A DNA stretch of 64,000 bases from Octopus vulgaris (Eukaryota). Numbering within the stretch: position 1 is the stretch's first letter; each line of letters begins with the position of its first letter. A program made the translations under genes and the position numbers. The stretch lies in NCBI GenBank assembly GCA_951406725.2, contig OX597814.1:19096001-19160000 (forward strand), in the 5' to 3' direction. Below are positions 4,547-62,030 of the stretch, in pieces. Below the pieces are notes generated by a model. It searched no databases. It saw nothing but the letters and a program-made list of their open reading frames with translations, and was not told the origin of the DNA.

Positions 4547-5035
4547 ATGCGCAATGGCCCAGTAGTTAGGGCAGCGGACTCGCGGTCGTAGGATCGCAGT
4601 TTCGATTCTCAGATGGAGTATTGTGAGTGTTTATTGAGCGAAAACACCTCAAGATCCACGAGGCTCCGGCAGGGGGGGTAGTGAACCCGGCTGTACTCTT
4701 TCACCACAACTTTCTCTCACTCTTTATTCCTGTTTCTGTTGTACCTGTATTTCAAAGGGCCGGCCTTGTCACACTCTGTGTCACGCTGAATCTCCCCGAG
4801 AACTACGTTAAGGGCACACGTAGAGCGTTCCGCCACTTGCATTTAATAAATAAGCTGTGACGTCACTGGTGCCAAGCTGTATCAGTCTTTGCCTTTCCCT
4901 TGGATAACATGGAGAGGGGAGGCTGGTATGCGTGGGGGACTGCTGGTCTTCCATAAATAACTGTGCCCAGACTTGTGCCTCGGAGGATAACATTAGGTGC
5001 AATCCCATGGTCATTCATGACCGAAGAGGGTCACA
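4545..5035 (+). mobile_element. Chimeric SINE: family A head/body fused to family B 3' half
   Basis: 4545-4850 matches the reverse complement of 6867-7251; 4855-5035 matches 57130-57318. Confidence 0.8.
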
Positions 5036-10599: not shown

Positions 10600-11250
10600 A
10601 GCTGGCAGAAACGTTAGCACACCGGGCGAAATGCTTAGCGGTATTGCGTCTTGGCAGAATCGTTAGCACGCCGGGCGAAATGCTTTGTGGTATTTTGCCT
10701 GCCGTTACGTTGTGAGTTCAAATTCCGCCGAGGTTGACTTTGCCTTTCATCCTTTCGGGGTCGATAAATTAAGTACCAGTTACGCACTGGGGTCGATGTA
10801 ATCGACTTAATCCATTTGTCTGTCCTTGTTTGTCCCCTCTGTGTTTAGCCCCTTGTGGGTAATAAAGAAATAGAAATAGGTATTGCGTCTGTCGTTGCGT
10901 TCTGAATTCAAATTCCGCCGAGGTCGACTTTGCCTTTCATCCTTTCGGGGTCGATAAATTAAGTACCAGTTACGCACTGGGGTCGATGTAATCGACTTAA
11001 TCCATTTGTCTGTCCTTGTTTGTCCCCTCTATGTTTAGCCCCTTGTGGGTAATAAAGAAATAGAAATAGGTATTGCGTCTGTCGTTGCGTTCTGAATTCA
11101 AATTCCGCCGAGGTCGACTTTGCCTTTCATCCTTTCGGGGTCGATAAATTAAGTACCAGTTACGCATTGGGGTCGATGTAATCGACTTAATCCATTTGTC
11201 TGTCCTTGTTTGTCCCCTCTATGTTTAGCCCCTTGTGGACAATAAAGAAA
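10600..11250 (+). mobile_element. SINE family D, nested/tandem trimer
   Basis: Two heads (GGCAGAAACGTTAGCAC) followed by three ~190-bp bodies ending AATAAAGAAA; B-box-like GAGTTCAAATTCC. Confidence 0.9.
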
Positions 11251-13144: not shown

Positions 13145-13961
13145 GCACACACATACACACGCACACGCACACACATGTATGCAGAGACTCGAGTTTTAGA
13201 ACGTACATTTCCCTGACTCAACAGTTGAAAAATAAGTACGGACGCATAAGATACTCTCTGGCTAAAAAAAAAATGTTAGTCACAATCAGAAACGACTTTG
13301 GTCATAGATCTGTTCGATTTTGGCTTACCTGGGGCTAATTAATAACATTATCTCGCATATAATATCCAGCATTCAAATTTGAAAAACCATATCGCTTCTT
13401 AAATTCGTGGAATACCTTATCCATGTTCTTCGTTTGTCTTCTATTTCGTATTTATTTCTTAATACATGTATACATACGTACATGTGTTTGTGTATGCGTG
13501 TGAGCGTGTGTACGTGTGTGGAGGTTGTGGGGGAGGAGCGTGTGTTCGCGTTTTTTAAACTCTTTTGTAATTATCTATATAATGTATGTGAAAGGTGTCG
13601 ATATCTTGTTAGTCAATTTTTTTACGTGGAAAGACTACGTGATAATTTCGGGCGTTACGAGGATGTTGCTCTCTACCAGAAGCTAGATAATGAATTTGAG
13701 GCGGCTTTGTGATGCTATAACATGATTGGGTAAGCTAGGATGCCTGAATATGTAAATTCACCCAACAACTATCATTCTTATTGACGACCCTCTAAGTCTC
13801 GGAAGAAAATGATAATACACATAAAGTTATGTCCTTAGGTCCGTCTAAGTGTAAACACATTCTTACTATTCGTATTGGTTACTTACTATTCATATGTGAG
13901 AGTTAATCATGCAATGGTAAATGCATGGTAAATGCAGGGTTAATCATGCAATGGTAAATGG

Positions 13962-14193
13962 AAGGTGGCGAGCTGGCAGAAACGTTAGCACGCCGGGCGA
14001 AGTGCTTAGCGGTATTTCGTCTGCGTTACGTTGTGTGTTCGAATTCCGCCGAGGTCGACTTTGCCTTTCATTCTTTCGGGGTCGATAAATTAAGTACCAG
14101 TTACGCATTAGGGTCGATGTAATCGACTTAATACCTATGTCTGTCCTTGTTTGTCCCCTCTATGTTTTTCCCCTTGTGGGTAATAAAGAAATA
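13962..14193 (+). mobile_element. SINE family D monomer
   Basis: Full head and body; GGTAAATGCATGG present upstream (13916) and downstream (14194). Confidence 0.9.
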
Positions 14194-14989
14194 GGTAAAT
14201 GCATGGCTATGCTTGGGCAAGGGTTTTTGAGCAAGTAAGGTATGCAAATAATCCTTCTACACGTTATTGCGCCGGGCAAAATGCTTAACGACATTTCGTC
14301 CGACTCTGAGTATGTCTTTCATGCTTTCTGGATCGATAAAATGAGTACCAGTTGAACACTGGGATCGATGCCATGGACTTACCCTTTCACCCGAAATTGC
14401 TTGTGCCAAAATTTTATAATCAATATTCATCCAATGGAAAGGCCATCGCATAGGAGCCGATACAAGGATGACCTTTGTCACCTGCAAGTGTTGTTCAAAG
14501 GATGGAAACTAGTATCGAATGTTATCTCAACAGATAAACGAGATGTTCTCACAATCCACCGCTTTGGGCTGGTTATGTTTTTATATCGCCTCCGCGACAA
14601 TGATAAAACAAAGTTGACTTCGGCGTGTCGGAACAAATACTACTAGGTATTGTACCCACTGCTTTAACATGCTAAACATACCTTCATCCGTTTGTTAGAT
14701 GCTCATTATTGTGAGTGTTATACTTTTGACTTGCATTCTTCTGGATATAATGTCTAATTTATAAGCAAAAACCTAACATTTTGAGAGAGAGTTAATCGAT
14801 ATTATCGATTCTAGTACTTGATTGGTTCTTTATTTTATCGAACCCGAAGCGATAAAATGCAGAAGTGATCTCGTGTGAATTTGAACTCAGTGGCGCAGAG
14901 TGTCACAACCAATCCAGGAGATGTTCTCGTCAACACAATATCGTATTTGTCAATTCGCTGCCTATTCGTCGTGCTCTATGCCAGTGAAA

Positions 14990-15407
14990 AAGGCGGCGAG
15001 CTGGCAGAAACGTTAGCACGCCGGGCGAAATGCGTAGCCGTATTTCGTCTGACGCTACGTTCTGAGTTAAAATCTCCGCCGAGGTTGACTTTGTCTTTCA
15101 TACTTTCGGGGGCGATTAAATAAGTACTAGTTACGCACTGGAACAATATAATCGACTTAATCCGTTTGTCTGTCCTTGCTTGTCCTCTCTGTGTTTAGTC
15201 CCTTGTGGGTAGTAAAGAAATAGGTATTTCGAATGACGTTACGTTCTGAGTTCAAATTCCGCCGAGATCGACTTTGACTTTCATCATTTCGGGGTCGATA
15301 AATAAAGTACCAGTTTCGCACTGGGGTCGATGTAATCGACTTTATCCCTTTGTCTGTCCTTGTTTGACCCCTCTATGTTTAGCTCCGTGTGGATAGTAAA
15401 GAAATAT
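14990..15407 (+). mobile_element. SINE family D dimer
   Basis: One head and two bodies joined at AAAGAAATA|GGTATTTCG. Confidence 0.9.
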
Positions 15408-16056
15408 ATATATATACCAGTGAAAAATGACAAAAATAACGAATAGAAATGCAGTCGAGACACGCTTGAAAACAAAGCTGACTGCGATGCGATATGAGCT
15501 TAGAAACTGACCGAACTAAATGCCACACACTACAGAGTTTGTTAATCCACCGCCATTTTTCCTGGTTTTCAACAAAGGCATAACAGAAAAAAATTGATGT
15601 TGGTTATAATCAATTTTACTGAGCTCCAATGGATGACTTAATTATTTTATCGACTTATGAATCATAAAAAGGTAAAGTTGACACTGGTAAGCTTCGGATA
15701 CAGTATGTAACTGATTCCGCCGATCCGGTGATGACATCCGCTTCAACATTTCATTTTATCTAAACCAAGAATTTAGCTTCGACAGGAATTGAACTCGATA
15801 TGCAAATTACCGTCTCTAAACATTAAAACATATTTTGCTTTTCGCGATTATCATTCTTCCGATTCACCTCTAATGTTAGTAAATATAAGAAGTATATCAA
15901 TAAGCTAAACTATTGTTTTATTACACTAGCATAAAGAAAAAAACATTTAGGGAAGAATAAGATGAAAACTTTCAAGACAGAAGTGAAAGGATTACATGCA
16001 CTTCATAGCGAATTCTGTTAAATTCCGATTTTGCAATGTACGCTTAGTATGATTTC

Positions 16057-18099: not shown

Positions 18100-18645
18100 C
18101 ACACACAAGTTTGGCTACTGTCGTTTTTTAAGACGTTAGCCTGGTAGCTTCTTGTAGGTAGGCATTGATCTTGGGCTGCTATGATAAACCCTTTTGTCTT
18201 TGATTTTAGGCCAGAAGACAACCATTGATGGGTAAGGGCTTTGTCAACATCGGCATTATTATATCTGTTTAGGTATTTGCCATTCAAAAATTTTTCTTGC
18301 CATTTATCAGTTTCAGCACGGATTTTCATACGCTTAGCTTTTTCTGTACATGTTTCCAGTACGTCAAATTCTGGCATTTTCTGTATATGGAATTCTCTTA
18401 TATATTTCTTGTTTTGTTACTGAGTATGATGTTTTCTTGTTTTCATGCTTTCAGACAAGTTTTAACATCCACCCATCAGAGTTTTTCAAGTAAGTGCTTA
18501 GGCCAATTGTGACAATCTACATTTTTAATTCCAGTTGTAAAAGGCCACAACCACCCTCTTTTCTTGACATGTAAAGTCGTTCTATATTTGTCTTATTGAG
18601 CGCATTCTACGAATTGTCAACAATTTTCGTATTTTTCTATCAAGA
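18100..18645 (-). mobile_element. R4/Dong-clade non-LTR retrotransposon fragment (region C-terminal to the RT core), copy 1
   Basis: Peptide WQEKFLNGKY...HQWLSSGLKSKTKGFIIAAQDQCLPTRSY; frameshifted. Confidence 0.8.
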
Positions 18646-19215
18646 TTACAGATTGCCATAGAGAGGTTTTTCTTGCCATTTATCATTCAGAATATCTAAG
18701 GCAGCAGTTTTAGCACGGGTTTTCATGCGCTTAGCTTTTTCTGTGCTTGTTTCTTGTATGTCTAATTCCGAAATTTGTTGTATTCGGAATTCACTTAGAT
18801 ATTCCTTTGCCTGTTTTGTTACTGAGTATGATGCTTTCTTGTTTTCATGTTTTGAGACAAGTTTTAACATCCAGTCCTCAGAGTTTTTCAGGAAGGTGTC
18901 TAGGCCAATTGTAGTAATCTTCATTGTTATTGCCAGTTGTAAAAGTCCACGGCCTCCCTCTTTTCTTGGCAGATAAAGTCGTTCTGTATCTGCCTTGGGG
19001 TGGTGCATTCTATGCATTCTCAACAGTTTTCGTATTTTTCTGTCAAGATTACATATTTCAGTAATTGACCAGTTAACGATATTGAAACTGTAAGTCACGA
19101 CTGGTATGGGTAAAATATTGATCGCTTCGATCCTGTTTCTTGCGCTCAGCTCTATCTTGAGTAATGCCCTTGACCTGCGATAACATTCTTTTCTGCTCTT
19201 TTCCCTCATCATTCA
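18646..19215 (-). mobile_element. R4/Dong-clade non-LTR retrotransposon fragment, copy 2
   Basis: 188-aa ORF: ELSARNRIEAINILPIPVVTYSF..W....LDRKIRKLL..RMHHPKADTERLYLPRKEGGRGL...WQEKPLYG. Confidence 0.85.
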
Positions 19216-19217
19216 AT

Positions 19218-19412
19218 GTTTAGCATGCTGGGCAAAATACTTAGTAGTATTTCGCCCGTCTTTACGTTCTGTGGTCAAATTCCACCGAAGGCGATTTTGC
19301 TTTCATCCTTTTAGGGTCGATAAATTAAGAACCAGTTTCGCACTGGGGTCGATGTAATTGACTGGTCCCCTCCTCCAAAATTTCAGGCCTTGTGCGTATT
19401 GTAGCAAATATA
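19218..19412 (+). mobile_element. Divergent SINE D-related element with an alternative tail
   Basis: Shares TTTGCTTTCATCCTTTTAGGGTCGATAAATTAAG..CTGGGGTCGATGTAAT; tail like 22910-23125. Confidence 0.7.
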
Positions 19413-21038: not shown

Positions 21039-21155
<117 letters not shown>

Positions 21156-21564
21156 GCTGGTAGAATCGTTAAAACGCTGAGCAAAATGCTTTGCGACATT
21201 TCGTCGGCTTTGATCTTCCGAGTAAAATCAGAGTAATCCTGGATCTTTGGTGTTCCTTGGTTTGATGTATATACATTTATCGTATTCCACCGTCTTTTCC
21301 ATTTGTTTCTCCTCACCTTTAAAGTAATTCCCCGCACAAACTATTGTTTGTCTTTGTGGTGTACTCCCTCATCTAACCCCTGTGGCTAATAAGTGAAATC
21401 ATCTCTATCATTGTTATTGTCGTTGTTGATGTCACTGTTGCCATTATAAATATTTTTGTTGTTGTAGTAGTAGTAGTAGCAGTAGTAGTAGCAGCAGTAG
21501 TAGCAGCAGTAGTAGTAGTAGAGGTAGTAGAGGTAGTAGAGGTAGTAGTAGTAGTAGTAGTAGT

Positions 21565-22907: not shown

Positions 22908-23125
22908 TAAGGTGGCGTGCAGGCAGAAAGGTTAGCACAACGGGCGGAATGATTAGCGGCATTTCGTCTGTGTCTATGTTCTGAGTTCGAATTCCGCTGA
23001 GATCGACTTTGCCTTTAATTCATTTGGGGTCGAAAAATAAGTACCAGTTTCCTACTGGAGTCGATCTAATCGACTGGCCTCCCGCCCCCAAAATTTCGAG
23101 CCTTGTGCCTTGAGTAGAAAAGAAT
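22908..23125 (+). mobile_element. SINE D-related variant
   Basis: AAGGTGGCGTGCAGGCAGAAAGGTTAGCAC head, GAGTTCGAATTCC box, alternative tail. Confidence 0.75.
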
Positions 23126-23461
23126 GTATATTTTAAGTTCAATAGCCTTAATTAGAACGCTGAGATAGTTTCCACAGTCTAAAATCATAGAAGGTATTCG
23201 TTGACATTTGTCTTACGTTAACCATAGCTAGATTTGTCTTCTGATTCACAGTGCATTATTCTTAAGATATATATTGATTTATTGACGCAGGCCTTCAAAG
23301 GGGCAAATTTAAAATGTACGCTATCTCCTTATATACTAGTATATTTTGTATCTTATATATTTTCCAAACTGATTTTATTTATTTCATTCATTGGACAGCG
23401 ACCATGCTGGTACAATGCACAGAGTATACTGAATATGCATAAATACATGGTGGTTGTCTAG

Positions 23462-23754: not shown

Positions 23755-25135
23755 ACATGGTGGTTGTCTACTCCTTCTACAGAGTTTGACCACCTCCTGT
23801 ACCTACACCTTAGCATCATCATGACGTCTGTGGTAGCTTTTTACACCAGATAATGTTCTAAAAAGACACCACATAGATTGTACCTCTAATTTGGACAAAC
23901 CAATACCTGCAGGTAAGTTCTTCTCTTTGTGGATCTTAATACGTCTTTTGAGGCCTCCGTTGGATTTGCAAATCTTCTGGCATACACTGCATTCAAACGT
24001 GTGCACAGACATATAGGCAGAATAGTTGGTGGAGATTCGTGTTCCATGCATTCATCTTCTCGATCGTTGCATTCTTCCTTAGATCTCTTTTAAGTCTTAC
24101 TTGTGTTATCCTGGCCTCTTCAAATGCTTTTACTCCACTCCACACCTTTGTTCTCCATTCACCTCGATCGGAAGCAAGCGTTTCTGTATCCCTGAAACAA
24201 TCCCAAGTGACTTCGTAGTAGTCTTTATGCCGTCCTTAAACCCTTTTTTTAAGGTTTACGCCGATAGTGTTTCCTCTCAGCAAGCTCACCATAAAACTGC
24301 TGTTTCGATATGTGTTCATTTGCCACACCATCTCAATTTGTTCCTCAAAATCATAGCTTTGAGGTGATGCTTGAGATGCAAGGAAATCTGTGTTTGGAGT
24401 AAAAGAACCCCATTTAATTTTTAAAATGCGATGAAGGCATTTTTGGTGGAATTTTTCTAACAATTTAAAATATCTTTCGTAACAAGTCCAAATTTCACAG
24501 AGATGGTAAGACAAATGATTTGTAAAGAGCCAGCTTTGTATTCTTGTTTATATGTTGCTGGCACCAAACGCGTGTCTCCAAGCCACCAAATGTTTTAGAT
24601 GCACTTTGAATCAGCAGCTGTATTTCTGTATCAAGATTTCCATCATTTTGAACAGAGCTTCTAAGGTAGACGAACGAATCGACAACCTCAAGTAACTTTC
24701 CCTTAACAAAAATGTTAGTGAGGTTACAAACAACACCACACGCAGGTTGATGCATTACAACTGCTTTTTTCAAGTTGATGGTGAAGCCAAAATCCTCACA
24801 AGCTGAGTCAAATGCATATACAAGAGATTGCAGACCTGTTTCAGAATGACTGACAAGATCGCAATCGTCAGCATACAAAGTTTCCTAATGTGTGAACTAA
24901 AAACCTTCGTTTTGAATTTCAGTCTGGTTACATTAAAAACATTCCCTGTTATTCGATATTTTATGTAAAAACCCGCCTCAGTGTTTTGAAAAGCATGTGA
25001 CAATACAGCCTCAAAGTATATTGCAAAGAGGGTGGGTGCACCAAGGTCTCCTTGCTTTACTCATTTTCCACAGCAAAAGATTCAGAGAGCCTACCACCAA
25101 AATTAACTCATGAGTGCTACTGGTAACATGTTATC
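23755..25135 (-). mobile_element. RTE (BovB-like) LINE, 5'-truncated and frameshifted
   Basis: VKQGDLGAPTLFAIYF, YADDCDLV..SETGLQ, FGFTINLKK, CEIWT, LEKFHQKCLHRILKIKW, C-terminal CSVCQKICKSNGGL zinc finger. Confidence 0.9.
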
Positions 25136-25630: not shown

Positions 25631-25906
25631 AACATTTGGGATGAAACGTATAAAAGAATTAAAGAATATATGCTTTTACGTGTGCATATATGTTTGTACG
25701 TACCCAGCAGGTTCACAAAGCCTTTAGAATTGAGCTGAAGGCAATATTTGAAATATGTGACGTGGCATGACGTCACCCTTACCGGAGACACACACCCAAG
25801 GCCATCAACTTCGTAGTTTCCGTTGCAGCTATCCATGTCAGGTTTTACAGCTTTTTTCAGTGATCAGAAAACATTGAGCAGGAGTCAAGATGTCGGTGTT
25901 TTGATA

Positions 25907-26139
25907 AGGCGGGGAGCTGGCAGAGAGGTTAGCACGTCGGACGAATTGCTTAGTGGTATTTCGTCTGCCGCTACGTTCTGAGTTCAAATTCCGCCGAGGT
26001 CGACTTTGCCTTTATTCCTTTCGGGGTCGATTAAATAAGTACCAGTTACGCAATGGGGTCGATATAATCGACTTAATCCGTTTGTCTGTCCTTGCTTGTC
26101 CACTCTCTGTTTAGCCCCTTTGTGGGTAGTAAAGAAATA
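25907..26139 (+). mobile_element. SINE family D monomer
   Basis: TSD GGT(G/A)TTTTGATA (25895-25906 and 26140-26151). Confidence 0.9.
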
Positions 26140-26612
26140 GGTATTTTGATACCGAGCATGAAGTGTCATAATACACGCTACTCTTTTCCAATATTCAGAC
26201 GGCTTCCTGACATCCAAGACAGCCTAACAAACGGTGTTGGTGGGTTTATGTCCACGTGACTTAGAGACTCACCATAAGAGCCCGATGCATTATGTATTAG
26301 CACTGCAGTTTATTCATTCAAATAGAATTCTTGAAGAGGGTACCCTGACATGGGCACTGACTAATGAAGGAAACAAGTAAAACAAAAAACATAACCGATA
26401 CTTACATATATATTCATGTGTGTGTGTGTGTGTGTATGTATATGTATATAATGCACGCACGCACACACACGCGCGCACAGATATGCAGCCACAGGGTTTT
26501 GTTATTTTGTAATTCAAGATACTTTTTGTATTGTATGTTACACCCTTGTGGCCAATAAGAAATTTATCATTCTTGGTATTTTTCTAATTTAGACGATGTT
26601 ATTGTGGATATT

Positions 26613-29335: not shown

Positions 29336-29545
29336 TGTTTCTTTATTAGCCACACAGGGCTGCACACAGACAGGACAAATTACAACTTAGAGCTTTTCTT
29401 TTGGGGGTAAAAAAAGGGGGTTTGGTTTTCGATCAAAAGGGATCGTAAAGGGAAAGAAAGAGGACAAAAAAAGGGGGGAATAAAAAAAAAGTTTTTTAAG
29501 GAGGGGGGAGAGGAAAAAAAATGATCAATAGGGATCGTTATCACA
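29336..29545 (-). mobile_element. Tx1-like LINE 3' UTR fragment with 16-bp TSD
   Basis: Homologous to 44862-45120 and 1739-1860; TSD CAAAAGAGTTAATATA at 29320-29335 and 29546-29561. Confidence 0.85.
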
Positions 29546-29957: not shown

Positions 29958-30372
29958 TACTCTTATACTTGTTTCAGTCATTTGACTGCGGCCATGCTGG
30001 AGCACCGCCTTTTAATTGACCAACTCGACCCAGGGACTTATTCTTTTTGCAAGCCCAGTACTTATTCTATCGGTGTCTTTTGCCGAACCGCTAAATAACG
30101 GGGACATAAACACACCAGCATCGGTTGTCAAACAATGCTAGGGGGACAAACACAGACACAAACACATAGATGCATATATATATATATATATATAGATATA
30201 CATATATACGACGGGCTTCTTTCAGTTTCCGTCTACCAAATCCACTCACAAGGCTTTAGTCGGCCCGAGGCTATAGTAGAAGACACTTGCCCAAGTTGCC
30301 ACGCAGTGGGACTGAACCCGGAACCATGTGGTTGGTAAGCAAGCTACTTACCACACAGCCACTCCTGCGCCT
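29958..30372 (-). mobile_element. SINE family C, full length
   Basis: Head AGGCGCAGGAGTGGCTGTGTGGTAAG...GGTTCAGTCCC; body ending GAAACAAGTA. Confidence 0.92.
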
Positions 30373-31532: not shown

Positions 31533-32303
31533 TATCTCTTTACTACTCACAAGGGGCTAAACACAGAGGGGACAAACAAGGACAGACAAACGGATTAAGT
31601 CGATTACATCGACCCCAGTGCGTAACTGGTACTTATTTAATCGACCCCGAAAGGATGAAAGGCAAAGTCTACCTCGGCAGAATTTGAACTCAGAACGTAG
31701 CGGCAGACGAAATACCTATTTCTTTATTACTCACAAGGGGCTAAACACAGAGGGGACAAACAAGGACAGACAAACGGATTAAGTCGATTATATCGACCCC
31801 AGTGCGTAACTGGTACTTATTTAATCGACCCCGAAAGGATGAAAGGCAAAGTCGACCTCGGCGGAATTTGAACTCAGAACGTAACGGCAGACGGAATACC
31901 TATCTCTTTACTACCCACAAGGGGCTAAACACAAGGGACAAACAAGGACAGACAAACGGATTAAGTCGATTATATCGACTCCAGTGCGTAACTGGTACTT
32001 ATTTAATCGACCCCGAAAGGATGAAAGGCAAAGTCGACCACGGCGGAATTTGAACTCAGAACGTAACGGCAGACGAAATACCTATTTCTTTATTACTCAC
32101 AAGGGGCTAAACACAGAGGGGACAAACAAGGACAGACAAACGGATTAAGTCGATTATATCGACCCCAGTGCGTAACTGGTACTTATTTAATCGACCCCGA
32201 AAGGATGAAAGGCAAAGTCGACCTCGGCGGAATTTGAACTCTGAACGTAGCTGCAGATGAAATACCGCTAAGCATTTCGCCCGGCATGCTAACGTTTCTG
32301 CCA
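31533..32303 (-). mobile_element. SINE family D tandem tetramer (~184-bp units)
   Basis: One head at 32260-32303 and four bodies joined at AAAGA(A/G)ATA|GGTATT. Confidence 0.92.
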
Positions 32304-33060: not shown

Positions 33061-33305
33061 CACACACACACATACACACACACATACATACACACACATA
33101 CATACATACACACATACATACATACATACATATACATACATACATACATACATACATATACATACATACATACACACACACACATGCACACACACACAGT
33201 ATTGAAGCTTGAGAACAATCAGATACATTTGCAACACATCTGTTGAAAATATTATTGTTCACACACATACATATACATATATACATACAGACAGACAGAC
33301 AGATA

Positions 33306-33341
<36 letters not shown>

Positions 33342-33389
33342 ATCCAGCATGGCCACAACCTCAAGGCTGAAACATATAAAAGAATAACA

Positions 33390-33755
33390 GAATATAAATG
33401 TGTGCAAAGTACAAGAAATATTAATGCAGTATATGGGGATTGGACAATAAGCGTAAGGCAGTGTCAATGGTGGTTCCAGAAATCCCGAGCCATAAACTAC
33501 AGCCTAGAAGACGAGCCTCATCCTGAAAGATCTGTAGAACTCGACAAGGACATCCTGAAAACCCTGGTGGAACAAAATATCATCGTAACTGTTGAGGAAC
33601 TAGCAGAGAAGCTTGGATTTGGTCATTCAACCATTCATTGACACCTGTGTGCTATCGGAAAAGTCAGCAAATTGGGTCAATGGGTTCCTCACGAACTTTC
33701 CGAGTCTAATTGCATGCAGAGAGTGAATGTATGCTTTTCTTTGCTGTCATATCTC
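33390..33755 (+). pseudogene. Mariner transposase N-terminal (HTH) fragment
   Basis: RNINAVYGD..ISVRQCQWWFQK...SLEDEP...TVEELAEKLG..HSTIH*HL..IGKVSKLGQWVPHELS. Confidence 0.9.
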
Positions 33756-37589: not shown

Positions 37590-38392
37590 GCACGCACGTA
37601 CACGGACACTTGGGAACACTCACACGCATTCACATGTACATCCACACACATACAAACACACTCATACACACGGATACGGATACACGAAAACATTCACATA
37701 CACACTCTCACACATGCTAATACTCATGCCAGCAATTACGCTAACACATACACACATACATTCAGAGACATAGGCAGAGGTTTTGCAGGATACAAACAAC
37801 ATATGCGCATGTATAGGTGAGAGTGTGTCTGTTCCTGTATGAATGTGTCTCTGTCTGTGTCTCTGTGCGCGTGTGTTTGCGTGATGGCGGCATTGAATAC
37901 GCTAGTGTTGTAGGTATGTGCAAGATGTAAGTGCGTGTGTGGATTCCTGTGTAGTTAGGAGTTGTGTTTGTGAGTGTATTAAGATAGGTTGCAACATGAC
38001 GAATGAAATAGAGAACTCAATACCTTTCTTGTAGTATGTAACACACACACATACATACATAAACACACAGACAGCTAGAAAGATAGACAGACAGACAGGT
38101 AGGTAGGTAGGTAAGTAGGTGGGTGGGTAGGTTGGTAATTAGGTAGAAAGGTAGATAGGTATGTATGTATGTATATATGTATGTATGCATGTATGTATGT
38201 ATGTATGTATGTATGTAGGTAGGTAGGTAGGTAGGTAGGTAGGTAGGTAGGTAGGTAGGTAGGTGGATAGATAAACAGAAGGACGGACGGACGGACGGAC
38301 GGACGGAAGGACAAACAGACAGACTGACGGACTGACAGACAGCGAGACTGACAAACAGATAGAGCGACTGACAGACAGACAGACAGACAGAC

Positions 38393-41512: not shown

Positions 41513-42061
<549 letters not shown>

Positions 42062-42074
42062 ATATATGTGTGTT

Positions 42075-42206
<132 letters not shown>

Positions 42207-42208
42207 TA

Positions 42209-43454
42209 TCAGGCTGGTGCAAAAGTAATTTCCGATTTAAAGAGCTAAGGTTAAAATGAATAAGCCAATGACTATGGAAATATTTATTCATTAACATACT
42301 TACCATTGCTTTCAGTGACCTCATTCCATCTTTCAACAACCTTATAACTGCCTCGCTTGTAAAATCCTTTAGGTTTAGAACCAAAATATGAATCTCTTCT
42401 CTTGTTTTTAACCTAAGTCCATAAAAATGGTTCTGTAATCCTCGGTACAAATGGTAATCAGAAGGAGTAAGGTCAGGAGAATATGGAGGATGAGGCAGTA
42501 TTTCCCATCCAATTCTTCCAAGAGAGTTTTGGTCAGTCGAGCTGTGTGAGGACGAGCATTATCGTGATGGAAGATGACACCCCGTCTGTTAACCAAGGAT
42601 GCTCGCTTTTAGCTCAGAACAGTTTTCTAACGACGAAGTTGCACACAGTTAAGATTAGCATTAATTGTTTGGCTGTTGTCCAACAGTTCATAATGGATTA
42701 CTCCTTTAATACCCTACCATGCACTCAACATGATCTTCTTTGGCTGAAGTCCAGCTCTCGGTTGTTGAATTTGGCCGTCCTCTTCGACTGATCCAAGAAC
42801 GGCGGCGTTTAAAATTATGGTAAAGAATTCACTTCTCATCACCTGTAACAAGCCTGTCTAAAACTGTTGCTTGAAAGTTTCGCGAAAGCAATGATTGACA
42901 ACAAGCAGCACGCTGTTGTCGATTCCCTGGAGACAGCTCGAGAAGGACCCATTTTCCAGCCACTGAAACCTACTCAATGTGTTTTAGCAGGCGTACCACG
43001 GTTGTATGGGCCACGTTTAACTGTTTTGCAAGTTCCCTAGTGGTAACAGAAGGGTTCTCTGAAACAAGAGATTCCAACATTTCGGAATTAAGTTTTGGGG
43101 ACGACCCTCTTTTGGTCCTTCTTTCAAAGTGAAATCCCCTCTTCGGAAACGGCAAAACCACCTCCTGCACCTTCTTTCATTCACTACATCATCCCCATAA
43201 ATGCTCTGAATGGATCTTGCTGCCGCACTTGCATTAACACCTTTATGAAACTCGTAGAGTAAAACATTTCTTATGTGATCTTTAGATGGGACAAATATGG
43301 TGGTAAAATTTTCTGAGAATTATGGCCAGAAGTTAGATGATCTGAAAGAAAATAGTACAAATTAGACACAGAGATATCTTAAAAGAGGTTAGAAAATTAA
43401 TAAATTTGATCTGAAACACTTTTTCTAGAAATCGGACTTCACTTTTGCACCAAC

Positions 43455-44861: not shown

Positions 44862-45120
44862 GTTTCTTTATTGGCCACACAGGGCTGCACACAGATGGGA
44901 CAAGTTACAAGGTAGAGCTTTTCTTTTGGGGGATGAAAACAAAAAAACAAAGGAAACAAAAAAAAGGTGGCGTAGGTTTTTCGATCAAAAGGGATCGTAA
45001 AAGGGAAAAAAAGAACAAAAACTAAAAAAAAAAGGAAAAGGAACAAAAGAAAAGAGAAATGAAAAAAAAAACAGGGGGAAAATGGGGAAGAGGAAAAAAA
45101 ACGATCAATAGGGATCGTGT
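44862..45120 (-). mobile_element. Tx1-like LINE 3' UTR fragment embedded in (GATA)n
   Basis: Same 3' end as 1739 and 29336; (GATA)n on both sides (44777-44860 and 45122-45238). Confidence 0.85.
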
Positions 45121-47281: not shown

Positions 47282-47401
47282 TAAATGAAATGATTTGGGT
47301 AGTGCACAGAATGGTAAACAGGTAAGAATAATAAAATTTGTTGGAAGAAGTGAATGAATTACTTTCTTTACACGCAGGTATAGAAAGTCATAAAAGGTAT
47401 A

Positions 47402-47636
47402 AAAGGCGGCGAGCTGGCAGAAACGTTAGCACGCCGGGCGAAATGTTTAATGGTATTTCGTCTGCGGTTAGGTTCTGAGTTCAAATTCCGCCGAGGTTGA
47501 CTTTGCCTTTCATCCTTTCGGGGTCGATAAATTAAGTACCAGTTACGCACTGGGGTCGATGTAATCGACTTAATCCGCTTGTCTGTCCTTGTTTGTCCTC
47601 TCTGTGTTTAGCCCCATTGTGGGTAGTAAAGAAATA
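47402..47636 (+). mobile_element. SINE family D monomer
   Basis: TSD AGGTATAGAAAGTCA (47376-47390 and 47636-47650). Confidence 0.93.
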
Positions 47637-48499
47637 GGTATAGAAAGTCACCAAATTTTCTAAGAAAATAAGAATTTGGAGACTATGCATTTACTGAGGA
47701 ACAATTCCTTCATTTCTTTCCTTTTAACAAACCTTATTTTTACCACTGAGTGTGTGCGTGTGTGTATGTGTGTATGTGCGTGTGCATATGGGTGTGTTTG
47801 AGAGAGAGAGAGAGAGAGAGAGAGTGAGTACGTGTGCGTGCGCGGGTATTGATATATATATGAATAAATAAAACAAAATAATCCTCAACAAAACTTACTA
47901 ATTTGGCCAATATTTTCCTTATAATTTTTCAATGTTCTCATTTCATAATTAGCATAATTATCACTGATAATTGTTATTTATATTAATGTTGAAATTATAT
48001 TATTACATTATTTAAATTTTATTCATCGATTTATTTGCATTGTTCAGGAAATATTTGTTTTCTTTAGTAGTTTTTAGTTATATATTATATTTCTTGTAAT
48101 TTAATTTTTTAAAATTTTCACTACGTTTTAGTTTTTCGTGAGTGTGAAGAAAATGCTCACATCTTGATTATTTGAATTTGTATTGGCTAATTTTACCAGA
48201 ATATATTCAGTGACTAATTTACATTTTCTTCCTGTTTGCCTGCTCATACGTGTGTATGATTGTATGGTAGCGACAGAGAGTAGAAATGAGGGAGAAAAAC
48301 ATAATGAATGAAAGAAAGAGGCACAGAAAATACTAAATTTTTATTCGTATAAAAATCTCTTCACTGTCCATGAGCAATAAATGATAAAAGCCCGTATGTC
48401 GTCTCGTAGCTTTCCTCTCACTAGGCTACGATATTTACAAACACCGCCATATACTGAATAAATTGTAACCGAGCGATGTACTCAAAGATAAAAACTACG

Positions 48500-52073: not shown

Positions 52074-52206
52074 GATTTTCCCAGGTTTGACAGGAATAAG
52101 ACGGTGGGATAAATACAAAGCACAGATATAAAGGCAAGAGACTAACAACAGGTGGATAGATGTAGGGAACCCATAGACGGGGTGGGGTGGGGTGGGGGTA
52201 ATGGAA

Positions 52207-52695
52207 CTGGATGGACAAAATAGAGAGAGAGAGAGAGGGGGGAGGGAGGGAGAAGGAGGACATGAAGTATGAGAAATTGAAGTTAGAGTTGATGAGAAGT
52301 AAATATCTGTTGAACCGTACGAATAAAATGCAGATGTATGCATGAAGTGAGAGAGAGAGAGAGAGAAGGGGGTGAGAGAGAGAGAGAGAGAGAGTAAGAG
52401 AGGGTAGAAGGGAGAGAGAGAGAGTTTGAATGAGTGAGTGATTGGTTCGTTAGTGATTGACTGGATGGACAAAATAGAGAGAGAGAGAGAGGGAGGGAGG
52501 GAGAAGGAGGACATGAAGTATGAGAAATTGAAGTTAGAGTTGATGAGAAGTAAATATCTGTTGAACCGTACGAATAAAATGCAGATGTATGCATGAAGTG
52601 AGAGAGAGAGAGAGAGAGAGAAGGGGGCTAGAGGGAGAGAGAGAGTAAGAGAGGGTAGAAGGGAGAGAGAGAGAGTTTGAATGAGTGAGTGATTG
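52207..52695. repeat. Tandem duplication of a ~250-bp GA-rich unit
   Basis: CTGGATGGACAAAATAG...GAGTTTGAATGAGTGAGTGATTG twice. Confidence 0.9.
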
Positions 52696-57333: not shown

Positions 57334-58094
57334 ATATGTGCGTGTGTGTATGTATGTGTGTGTATATATGTATGTGTATGCATATTTAAGTAGTTTATCT
57401 GTTATTTCTAATAGATCAAGCTACGAAGTCTCCTTTTTGTTTTTGTCATTTACAAGCGCGTATACGGCTGTGCTCTCAGGTTCTCTCACTGTACGTGACA
57501 CATTGGGCCACTGTCTTCTTCTATAGCACTGAGACGACCAAAATCTGTGTGAGTGAGTTTGGTAGATAGAAACAGTTGGTAAACACGTCGTATATGTAGA
57601 GGGATATGTATGTGTTTCTCTGAATCCGTGTGTGTCTGTGTGTGCGCGTGTGCGCACTCAAGCATATGTACGCGTGTCTTTGTATTTGCTTTCGTCCACC
57701 CACTACTTGACAACCGGTTTTGGTTGATTTTCGTCTCTGTAACATCGCACTGCTGGAGTCTATGTATTGAACTAAGCCCTCCAAAGCACTGTCTCAGCAT
57801 TAGCGCAGCCCAGTAACGGAAACAAGTAAATGATAAGAGATTTTAACACTTGTTCAGCACTAATTGAACAGAATTATATGCACAGCTGTTCCAGATTCGA
57901 CTATTGCCTATGTTTGTTCTCGCGGCTTTATCATCCACTGTATACATTCACTTCTTAGAGATTATGATGTAAAAGGACAGATTTATATTTGTTAATCCAC
58001 AGTTCAAACGCCAACGAGTAGACATATGTCACATGGTCATTTGAGTCGCGAATGCTCAGTTTTTTCAATGTTTCATATTTTCTCTAGAGAATTA

Positions 58095-58510
58095 TATTTC
58101 TTTATTGCCCACAAGGGGCTAAACATAGAAAGGACAAACAAGGACAGACACACGGATTAAGCCGATTACATCGACCACAGTGCGTAACTGGTACTTATTT
58201 AATCGACCCCGAAAAGATGAATGGCAAAGTTGACCTCGGCGGAATTTGATCTCAGAACGTAACGGCAGACGAAATACCTATTTCTTTACTACCCACAAGG
58301 GTCTACAGACAGAGTGGACAAACATGGACATACAAAGGGATTAAATCGATTGTATCGACCCCAGTGCGTAACTAGTACTTATTTAATCGACCCCGAAAGG
58401 ATGAAAGGCAAAGTCGTCCTCGGCGGAATTTGAACTCAGAACGTAGCGGCAGACGAAATACCGCTAAGCATTTTGCCCGGCGTGCTAACGATTCTGCCAG
58501 CTCGCCGCCT
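58095..58510 (-). mobile_element. SINE family D dimer
   Basis: Head at 58460-58510 and two bodies joined at AAAGAAATA|GGTATTTCG. Confidence 0.9.
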
Positions 58511-59212: not shown

Positions 59213-59942
59213 TAGAGAAGAGAGAGGTTTATGAGTATGTATGCATCTATGTATGTATGTATGTATGTATATATGTAGATAGGTAGGTAGGTATGTAGGT
59301 AGGTAGGTAGGGTAGGTAGGCAGGTAGGCTCAATATTATATGTAATTTGTCTCGACTTTATGCATGTCAAGGTATCCAACGACTTTTGATTTAGAGAGTT
59401 TTTCTTATTTTCTAAAAGGGAACAGATGGATAAATGGACTAAAGGCGTTTGTGCTGCTCTGGTAGTAGGGAGTCACAATAATCTGGTGCTTTATGTTGTA
59501 GAGAAATGCAGCCAAATACATTATACAGTTACAGAAAATTTTGGCAATACTTCATGGATATTTTATTTTTACGATATGACGACAGATGTTTCAATACAGA
59601 ACTTTGCAACAGTCTCCTTTTATAAGAAGTTTGCCTATAGGAGGTTTCCGATTCTGAATATATCTCTCATTCCTCTTCTTTTCACTTTTCATATACAGTA
59701 ATTTTACACAAGATTTTTGCAAACATTCAACGTAGTTATGATAGTATATCGTTCATTCTAGCGACCTAGAGAATATAAAGTTATAGGAGCAGATGTGACT
59801 GTGTGATAAGGAGCGTGCTCCCCAACCATATGGTTCCGGGTTGAGTTCCACTTGGGCAATTGTCTTCGACTATGGCCCTGTGAGTGGATTTGGTAGACGA
59901 AAACTGAAAAAAGCCCCCTCGTGTACGTACACACAAACACAC

Positions 59943-60920: not shown

Positions 60921-61162
60921 AACATATACTTCAAACTATATATCAACTATACATGAACTATATATCAACTATACATGAACTCTAAGATATCTGACTCCGT
61001 TGTGTATTATAAATGAATTTCTTGTGTTTGACGGCATGAGCTGTCTCTTTTTATATATAACTTTTTTTGATAAGGTTCATTTCAGGAACTGAAACATGTT
61101 ATAATGTATATATAAAAATTAAAAATTGTATAATACAGCAGCATTTTCGAACTTCATTTTTT

Positions 61163-61223
<61 letters not shown>

Positions 61224-61318
61224 CTCTGCAGTGATAACCATGACTTTGAGCCCCAGTCTCAACCCATGGCTCGCCACTTCAACCTTCATTGATATCCACT
61301 CACCACTATTCACACCAC

Positions 61319-62030
61319 CCGTAAAGGTGGACTACTCAACATCGAGGAATGTAGGTACAATCATTTCTTCTATAAATAAAAATAAATTAAATAATTATTA
61401 TAATGGCACAATGAATAATAGCTCTAGCAATTATACAACCGATAGTAAAGGGAGTCATAATCAACAGATAAAAATATGTTCATGTCCTGATAAGACTAAA
61501 TGTAAACTCTCTAATAATTGTAATGTTGATAATGTAATTTATAAATGTATAGTAAACTCTAAGAACAAGAATAATAAAATTATGAATAAGGTTTATATAG
61601 GATCTGCAGCTAAAGAAATTAATAAAAGAATCTCTCGACACTACCAGACTTTCAAAATCCTAATTTAAATAAATTCACGGGTTTAAGTAAATATATATAT
61701 GGTAATTGAAATCTCGAAAAATAGACTACAACCTTAGATGAGTATAACAGGTAGAGCCCACTCTTATAATATTGGCAATAAAATGTGTTGATTATGTATA
61801 ACAGAATTTATGAAACTATTACAGTCTAGAGATGAATTATGAAACACATACGATGAACGAGGAGTTAAATGTAGACACAAAAGTAATTTTACTTTCAATA
61901 AAATGAAATACTGTACACCCACCCTTGAATCTAATAATCATGCACTTTTGATTTCTACAGCACTTGAATAGATCATATAAATAATTAATTAAATATTACT
62001 GAAAATTATTTTATAACAAATTATATATAT
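61319..62030 (+). mobile_element. Penelope-like element GIY-YIG fragment, copy 2
   Basis: Near-identical direct repeat of 59943-60650 sharing the same disabling stops. Confidence 0.88.

Follow-up and report, generated by a model that had tools for sequence, protein, structure and literature searches.

The 64,000-nucleotide window of Octopus vulgaris DNA analyzed here (the whole stretch) is AT-rich, microsatellite-dense animal DNA. A short interspersed nuclear element (SINE) of about 233 bp, with a tRNA-like head, a central segment, and a tail ending in AAAGAAA, recurs in it both as monomers and in tandem arrays. Using BLAST and alignment, we found 14 bodies of this SINE at seven loci, designated A (three bodies), B (one), C (two), D (one), E (four), F (one), and G (two). 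RNA polymerase III (Pol III) A and B boxes are present at +12 and +76 in units F and G, and a GGTATT motif lies inside the head at +49. Alignment of the units places all seven array junctions (7/7) at this motif, as the first-pass annotation had proposed in noting GGTATT about 50 nt into the element at every multimer junction. Judged from its sequence features, namely the Pol III boxes, target-site duplications, and a 3' tail in common with a long interspersed nuclear element (LINE), the element is a tRNA-derived SINE. ARAGORN and Rfam find no tRNA genes in the window; the head of SINE G has a cloverleaf-like but weak fold (z = -1.6), and folding of the tail RNA revealed no significant structure (z = 0.35, 1.04, and -1.20). 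Locus A (10600-11250) is composed as follows.

10600-10651, + strand: outer SINE head (A0), 5'-truncated by about 10 nt and interrupted after the +49 site
10640-10651, + strand: 5' copy of a 12-bp target-site duplication, GGTATTGCGTCT, with a private G (null fraction 0.002)
10652-10878, + strand: inner headed SINE (A1), starting at the A box, with a 6-nt reiteration in its tail
10879-10890, + strand: 3' copy of the 12-bp duplication, directly after the A1 tail
10879-11068, + strand: headless unit (A2), apparently recombinant, A3-like through 11031 and A1-like from 11049
11069-11250, + strand: body and tail of the outer SINE (A3), with a LINE-like tail type, a flank that is not GGTA, and no duplication found

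Locus A is a headed SINE inserted into another SINE at +49 with a target-site duplication, and we have next to no doubt of this. The first-pass annotation had described a head cut at a 12-mer, a second headed copy, and the same 12-mer after its tail, and this arrangement is confirmed at 10640-10651 and 10879-10890. A match as long as this 12-mer occurs in 0.2% of 2,000 random window pairs, and the G at its position 7 is private to A0, A2, and A3, with the other 12 aligned family units having T (C in E3). The heads A0 and A1 differ at seven positions, and the duplicated private variant together with these differences therefore indicates nested insertion and not head duplication. Tandem duplication of one head was considered and is ruled out, as the heads differ and the private G ties A0 to A2 and A3. 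The 12-mer is found a third time at 11069-11080, because A2 is probably a recombinant duplicate: A2 equals A3 at all nine sites separating A3 from A1 up to 11031 (except for an A3-private change at 10977), equals A1 at all six separating sites from 11049, and has only one difference from A3 in its first 170 bases. A single unequal crossover, with the inner and outer bodies as partners, would fit these sites exactly, though an assembly mis-join could do so too.

The other SINE loci in the window are the following.

13963-14193, + strand: monomer B, with a 13-bp duplication (13916-13928 and 14194-14206) starting with GGTA, and a 5' junction that holds 34 nt of rearranged DNA resembling the target
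14991-15404, + strand: heterodimer C (C1 headed, C2 from 15223), with an outer duplication (14977-14990 and 15413-15426) whose start is not GGTA
25907-26139, + strand: monomer D, with a 12-bp duplication (25895-25906, GGTG; 26140-26151, GGTA) matching at 11 of 12 positions
31533-32303, - strand: array E of four units (one head, three headless), ending in GGTATT, with no duplication
47404-47636, + strand: monomer F, with a 15-bp duplication (47376-47390 and 47636-47650) that contains GGTA
58093-58510, - strand: heterodimer G (G1 headed, G2 from 58278), with a terminal flank that is not GGTA and no duplication

The 5' truncations of units A1 (10652) and E1 (32303, - strand) coincide, both falling at the start of the A box.

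An objective search of eight SINE boundaries found target-site duplications at five (A inner, B, C, D, and F); the A outer, E, and G boundaries had none. At the five GGTA-flanked ends that are testable (A1, B, D, E4, and F), the 5' duplication copy starts with GGT in four and with GGTA in three, E having none; among monomers B, D, and F, whose duplications are 12 to 15 bp, the 5' copy has GGT in all three and GGTA in two. GGT(A) is therefore not merely the tail of the element, and GGTA as a purely SINE-derived 3' end is ruled out by its presence in these 5' copies, so that the proposal survives the first of the two refuting conditions set in the first-pass annotation. The first-pass annotation had stated that monomer duplications start at GGT(A) and that the array at 31533 ends at GGTATT. 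The former holds for B (GGTA) and agrees with the GGTA within that of F, but the 5' copy of D reads GGTG, and those of B and F are separated from the head by 34 and 13 bases of rearranged DNA that resembles the target; the array does end in GGTATT, but has no duplication. The extra 5'-junction DNA of B (13929-13962) and F (47391-47403) repeats pieces of the target site, in the manner of repeated priming or template jumps. From window k-mer frequencies, the chance of three unique-DNA GGT(A) sites is about 2e-7, for a motif chosen post hoc. GGTA is the next sequence for all four terminal units with a G(G/A)GTA-type tail and for none of the three with a LINE-like tail (A3, C2, and G2; Fisher P = 0.029), which accords with the earlier suggestion that outer copies lacking GGTA reflect a subfamily-specific trait. 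Flanks run past GGTA towards TTT by 0, 3, 2, and 1 bases (P = 0.036).

Relationships among units were assessed by pairwise difference counts over the 14 units, because a 14-unit tree had only 1 of 11 inner branches well supported. C1 and C2 differ at 30 sites, the maximum of the matrix, and G1 and G2 at 24; C1 and G1 both group with D. There are 26 differences between C2 and G2, which are also unlike at diagnostic positions 79/82, so a single dimeric master for C and G is ruled out. A rare variant at site position 14 is common to C1 and C2, with divergence at position 17, a pattern that a hidden 14- to 16-bp duplication would give, resting on one site only. The sister-unit test holds for A2/A3 (support 96/94) and loosely for E, whose units are also close to the majority sequence, and fails for C, G, and A1/A3. 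The prediction that array units are non-sisters is thus upheld for dimers C and G but not for the crossover sisters A2/A3 or the mutually nearest units of E; the accompanying prediction that inner units are younger is not shown by the differences from the majority (A1 7 versus A3 11, C1 17 versus C2 18, G1 14 versus G2 11). Because A2 and A3 are crossover sisters and the E units nearest neighbors, recombination also builds arrays, and both insertion and recombination have contributed here.

Self-insertion into SINE heads is nonetheless very probably recurrent. Events within SINE heads make up three of seven (A1, C1, and G1, if C1 and G1 are insertions) in this one window; for comparison, more than 20% of copies lie in one target repeat for the SINEU-3 type (PMC4494074). 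The probability of three in seven depends on the motif rule, and is 0.0004-0.0017 for GGTA, 0.02-0.06 for GGTAT, and 0.23-0.47 for GGTATT. The GGTA-only rule being too unlikely, this 4-mer alone cannot explain the self-insertion rate. The proposal that the SINE becomes its own landing pad by sequence-directed integration is thus sustained by the nested insertion at A and the non-sister units of C and G, but needs amending in that recombination acts too and that GGTA is too common for the rate.

One or more sister SINE families have the same head and core with another tail (CCCCAAAATTTC..GGCCTTGTG), and their +49 site is often GGCATT. Copies with this different tail lie at 19215-19408, 22908-23130, 14295-14407, 14889-14792 (-), 51125-50960 (-), and 21155-21223. 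A core pattern search showed that about 40 nt of the SINE core (F 95-135) is in common with repeats at 121 metagenome loci (L001-L121), and returned no matches in the viral and genome contigs searched; a tail pattern gave none in the viral, metagenome, and genome contigs searched. The repeats at these 121 loci are of invertebrate type with many different tails, and only the 40-nt core is common to them and the SINE. The element is a putative MetaSINE, a group marked by a 66-bp Meta domain, and might correspond to one of the octopus SINE families of Ohshima and Okada (1994).

The same +49 junctions are present in contigs of two other organisms. Four of 24 sequencing runs (X6, X8, and X12 as contigs, X22 as raw reads) were compared, with monomer F only. 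Among the loose ends listed, 503 contigs of X8 have the SINE tail as a loose end directly before +49. X6 contains the tail, a 15-nt copy of the site, and then a full head (summed depth 578, versus 19-64 for the single contigs listed), and its contigs also connect this SINE tail with +49 sequences similar to those in the sister family. Among the joints listed, those leading from inside a head back to a head start occur in five contigs of X6, three of X8, and none of X12, a run in which the sister family is dominant and the tail of this SINE scarce. Depth in the GGTAT bin is 0.55, 0.52, and 0.65 of that in the preceding bin, and by our own arithmetic, which is biased upward by the F flank, roughly two-thirds or more of matched tails continue into GGTAT.

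A candidate partner family is represented by three LINE ends in the window.

1739-2650, - strand: L1/Tx1-like LINE, 5'-truncated and frameshifted (zf-RVT end of ORF2 plus 3' untranslated region [UTR]), ending in (TATC)n, with a 3' tail in common with the SINE
29338-29545, - strand: part of the 3' UTR of a related LINE, having a 16-bp duplication that begins with TATAT
44863-45120, - strand: part of the 3' UTR of a related LINE, bordered on either side by (TATC)n

The last 50 nt or so of the SINE align to all three, with 75-80% identity to LINE end J and 21 invariant columns over three LINE and five SINE ends. The LINE at 1739-2650 has a broken zf-RVT end (Pfam E = 0.0026, below the cut-off) and matches proteins P0001 and P0002 at 61-64%; both carry RVT_1 and zf-RVT, and the longer, P0002, matches L1 ORF2p (E = 1e-50) more closely than R2 (E = 1e-24). 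The copy in the window itself has neither an RT nor an endonuclease region. Atlas matches are to unnamed RVT_1/zf-RVT clusters. The partner is putatively Tx1-like, which fits the (TATC)n flanks. The three ends are followed by TATC, CTTATC, and CATATAT. Two of them adjoin (TATC)n, one on both sides, which suggests a family targeting GATA microsatellites, and all three 3' UTRs carry repeated CGATCCC..GATCG inverted motifs. L1-Tx1 families are reported to have been recently active in Octopus vulgaris (PMC13282606).

A plausible model, to which we give somewhat better than an even chance, is that a tail variant of the SINE inserts at GGT(A) targets, including +49 of its own copies, likely through pairing of a read-through RNA with nicked DNA; we lean only slightly toward such RNA-DNA pairing as the main source of target specificity. 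A LINE protein would mobilize the SINE, and Pol III may read past the tail of an array unit into GGUAUUUCG of the next, as suggested by the lack of a T4 terminator run in F, C, or the E array. An RNA ending in the +49 sequence could then pair with nicked matching DNA and prime reverse transcription, setting up a feedback loop. Four to seven matching bases may be enough in unique DNA, and resident SINE heads, which match fully, would be favored; target matches would be graded along GGTATTTCGT to about 10 bases, with nothing to the left of the nick. For L1, priming requires base pairing at 4 terminal and 6 upstream positions (PMC3649969), and SART1 and R1Bm benefit from RNA ends that resemble the target (PMC7265360). 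One-headed arrays might result if the complementary DNA (cDNA) were joined to the upstream flank, whose homology to it leads one to expect seamless headless joining, or if the 49-bp head repeat were lost later. As +49 is flanked by the A box and the B box, a promoter would be rebuilt by a seamless insertion there, and the duplication would regenerate the target; unequal crossover may then add units. It is also possible, as a more tentative extension, that the SINE acquired target specificity independent of its LINE endonuclease when a first self-insertion put +49 sequence behind its tail, new copies now being directed there by read-through RNA. Every head, of its own and the sister family, would then be a promoter-preserving, self-regenerating landing pad, and a self-reinforcing SINE-to-satellite route would operate genome-wide in several related species.

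Several observations weigh against this account. A headed nested insertion is seen directly at only one locus (A), where the reiteration in the A1 tail is readable as an RNA ending at AAATAG, and the GGTG of the D 5' copy would mispair within the first four bases. T4 runs are present in A1 and G2. Array E is without a duplication, and its four units are mutual nearest neighbors (5-10 differences) with shared private tail variants. For the other organisms, the head-to-head joints are known by position, without the letters in between, and 1045 joints and 1226 loose ends lie beyond those listed. Counted by contig, the sequence that follows the tail has an AT-rich consensus in X8 (565 contigs) and one in X6 (782) that agrees with GTAT only in part, and sequences ahead of heads are mostly unrelated (agreement 0.38-0.41). 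Just 23 of the 12.9 million raw reads of X22 matched, with loose ends of sister-family type. Finally, because the GGTATT 6-mer rule fits three of seven without extended pairing, pairing and an endonuclease preference are not separated.

The main and serious rival, which we nevertheless consider rather unlikely, accepts self-insertion as real and derives its specificity from a Tx1-family endonuclease that cuts sites resembling GGTAT(T), such as those in (GGTA)n microsatellites; the presence of such a site in the SINE head would be accidental. Tx1 families insert into microsatellites and into other transposons, a preference that they hand on to SINEU elements (PMC4494074), and the window has (GGTA)n tracts at 38098-38261 and 59282-59309. 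The (TATC)n tracts beside two of the three LINE ends and the good fit of the 6-mer rule to the self-insertion rate also favor such an enzyme, but a GGTA flank is found at none of the three LINE ends and the base left of the site varies over four sites (C, T, C, and A). Moreover, the motif is the very sequence that follows the tail in arrays, which would be a coincidence unless the arrays came second.

Alternatively, the arrays could descend from one or a few ancient dimers that spread as multimeric masters and grew by unequal crossover. Gene conversion would have made the units dissimilar, and GGTA would be only 3' microhomology and locus A an occasional event. The crossover origin of A2, the close kinship and private variants of the E units, and the duplication surrounding the whole of dimer C would all follow, a single nested insertion with a head is not unlikely (P = 0.09-0.14 for one of four), and headed-then-headless arrays in a bivalve have been discussed as unequal recombination (PMC11481361). 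We think this improbable, in that C2 and G2, with their 26 differences and distinct diagnostic positions, are not copies of one dimer, and X6 contigs join the tail both to sister-like +49 sequences and to a further full head. Very improbable is the suggestion that the multimers, above all A2, are assembly mis-joins of near-identical repeats or tandem units of a non-autonomous long terminal repeat (LTR) element. The structure of locus A is known from the assembly alone and A2 is chimeric, so near to A3 in its first 170 bases, but the units of C and G differ by 24-30 bases and the junction recurs in contigs of other organisms. An LTR element is ruled out by duplications of 12-16 bp, a LINE-derived tail, and the absence of a terminal-repeat pair flanking the monomers.

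The window also holds repeats of other kinds. Another tRNA-like interspersed family with a different core lies at 30000-30300 (-) and about 4560-4610, and LINE reverse-transcriptase-region fragments are present at 18646-19212 (-; no Pfam hit) and 24495-24884 (-; RVT_1, E = 6e-5), which we presume to be R4/Dong-like and RTE-like. Reading frames at 33213-33641 (-), 42037-42558 (-), and 61123-61668 (+) seem to resemble mariner transposase pieces and a GIY-YIG/Penelope-like end, and the two that were scanned lack Pfam support. Longer tandem duplications lie at 18308-19057 (period 402) and 52206-52695 (period 251).

Parts of this system resemble others already described. In the crocodilian SINEU-3/Tx1-Mar system (PMC4494074), insertion is target-specific and tandem copies sandwich a duplication after sequential insertion; it shares with this SINE the link to Tx1-type LINEs, the fixed position of the target within a repeat, and the tandem copies with a duplication, whereas there the target is Mariner-N4_AMi and the head derives from an snRNA, and here the target is the element's own tRNA-like head and the extra units are mostly headless. 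HCD-SINE arrays of the blood clam Scapharca broughtonii (PMC11481361) likewise have a headed first unit, the rest truncated at the same head position, and one outer duplication, but they amount to about 3% of SINEs, compared with four of seven loci here, and the excerpted account discusses unequal recombination and reports no target motif or nested duplication. Insertion of Alu into the A-rich linker of another Alu (PMC3014933) and the snap-velcro priming of L1 (PMC3649969) are similar in that the element carries a preferred target and RNA end and target pair over 4-10 bases, although a homopolymer recognized by the L1 endonuclease is involved there, and here a mixed sequence within the promoter, between its two boxes. 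In SART1Bm and R1Bm (PMC7265360), accurate priming is favored when the RNA matches the target at or beyond its 3' end; unlike this SINE, these are autonomous site-specific LINEs with host repeats as targets. As in the MetaSINE superfamily (PMC4824008), a tRNA head is combined with a central segment common to distant animals, membership of this element in the superfamily being putative. Squamate SINE-derived satellites (PMC10702118) are also tandem repeats built from SINE portions; unequal recombination is given as the main cause of their first duplication, and insertion at the same locus is referred to only as more probable. A literature search that excluded most subscription papers and Repbase/Dfam found no published account of such self-insertion, and the family itself may well be catalogued; the excerpts of PMC4824008, PMC4758252, PMC3747384, PMC8967140, PMC3531059, and PMC5804259 contain no description of it.

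SINE arrays with fixed junctions are usually ascribed to unequal recombination, and locus A shows retrotransposition with a duplication beside a later crossover. In repeat annotation, arrays of this kind would be mistaken for satellites or dimeric families. The family is of very high copy number, which makes endonuclease choice and primer pairing directly testable by flank statistics. If the RNA-guided loop is true, a non-autonomous element can shift its landing site without any change in the LINE protein.
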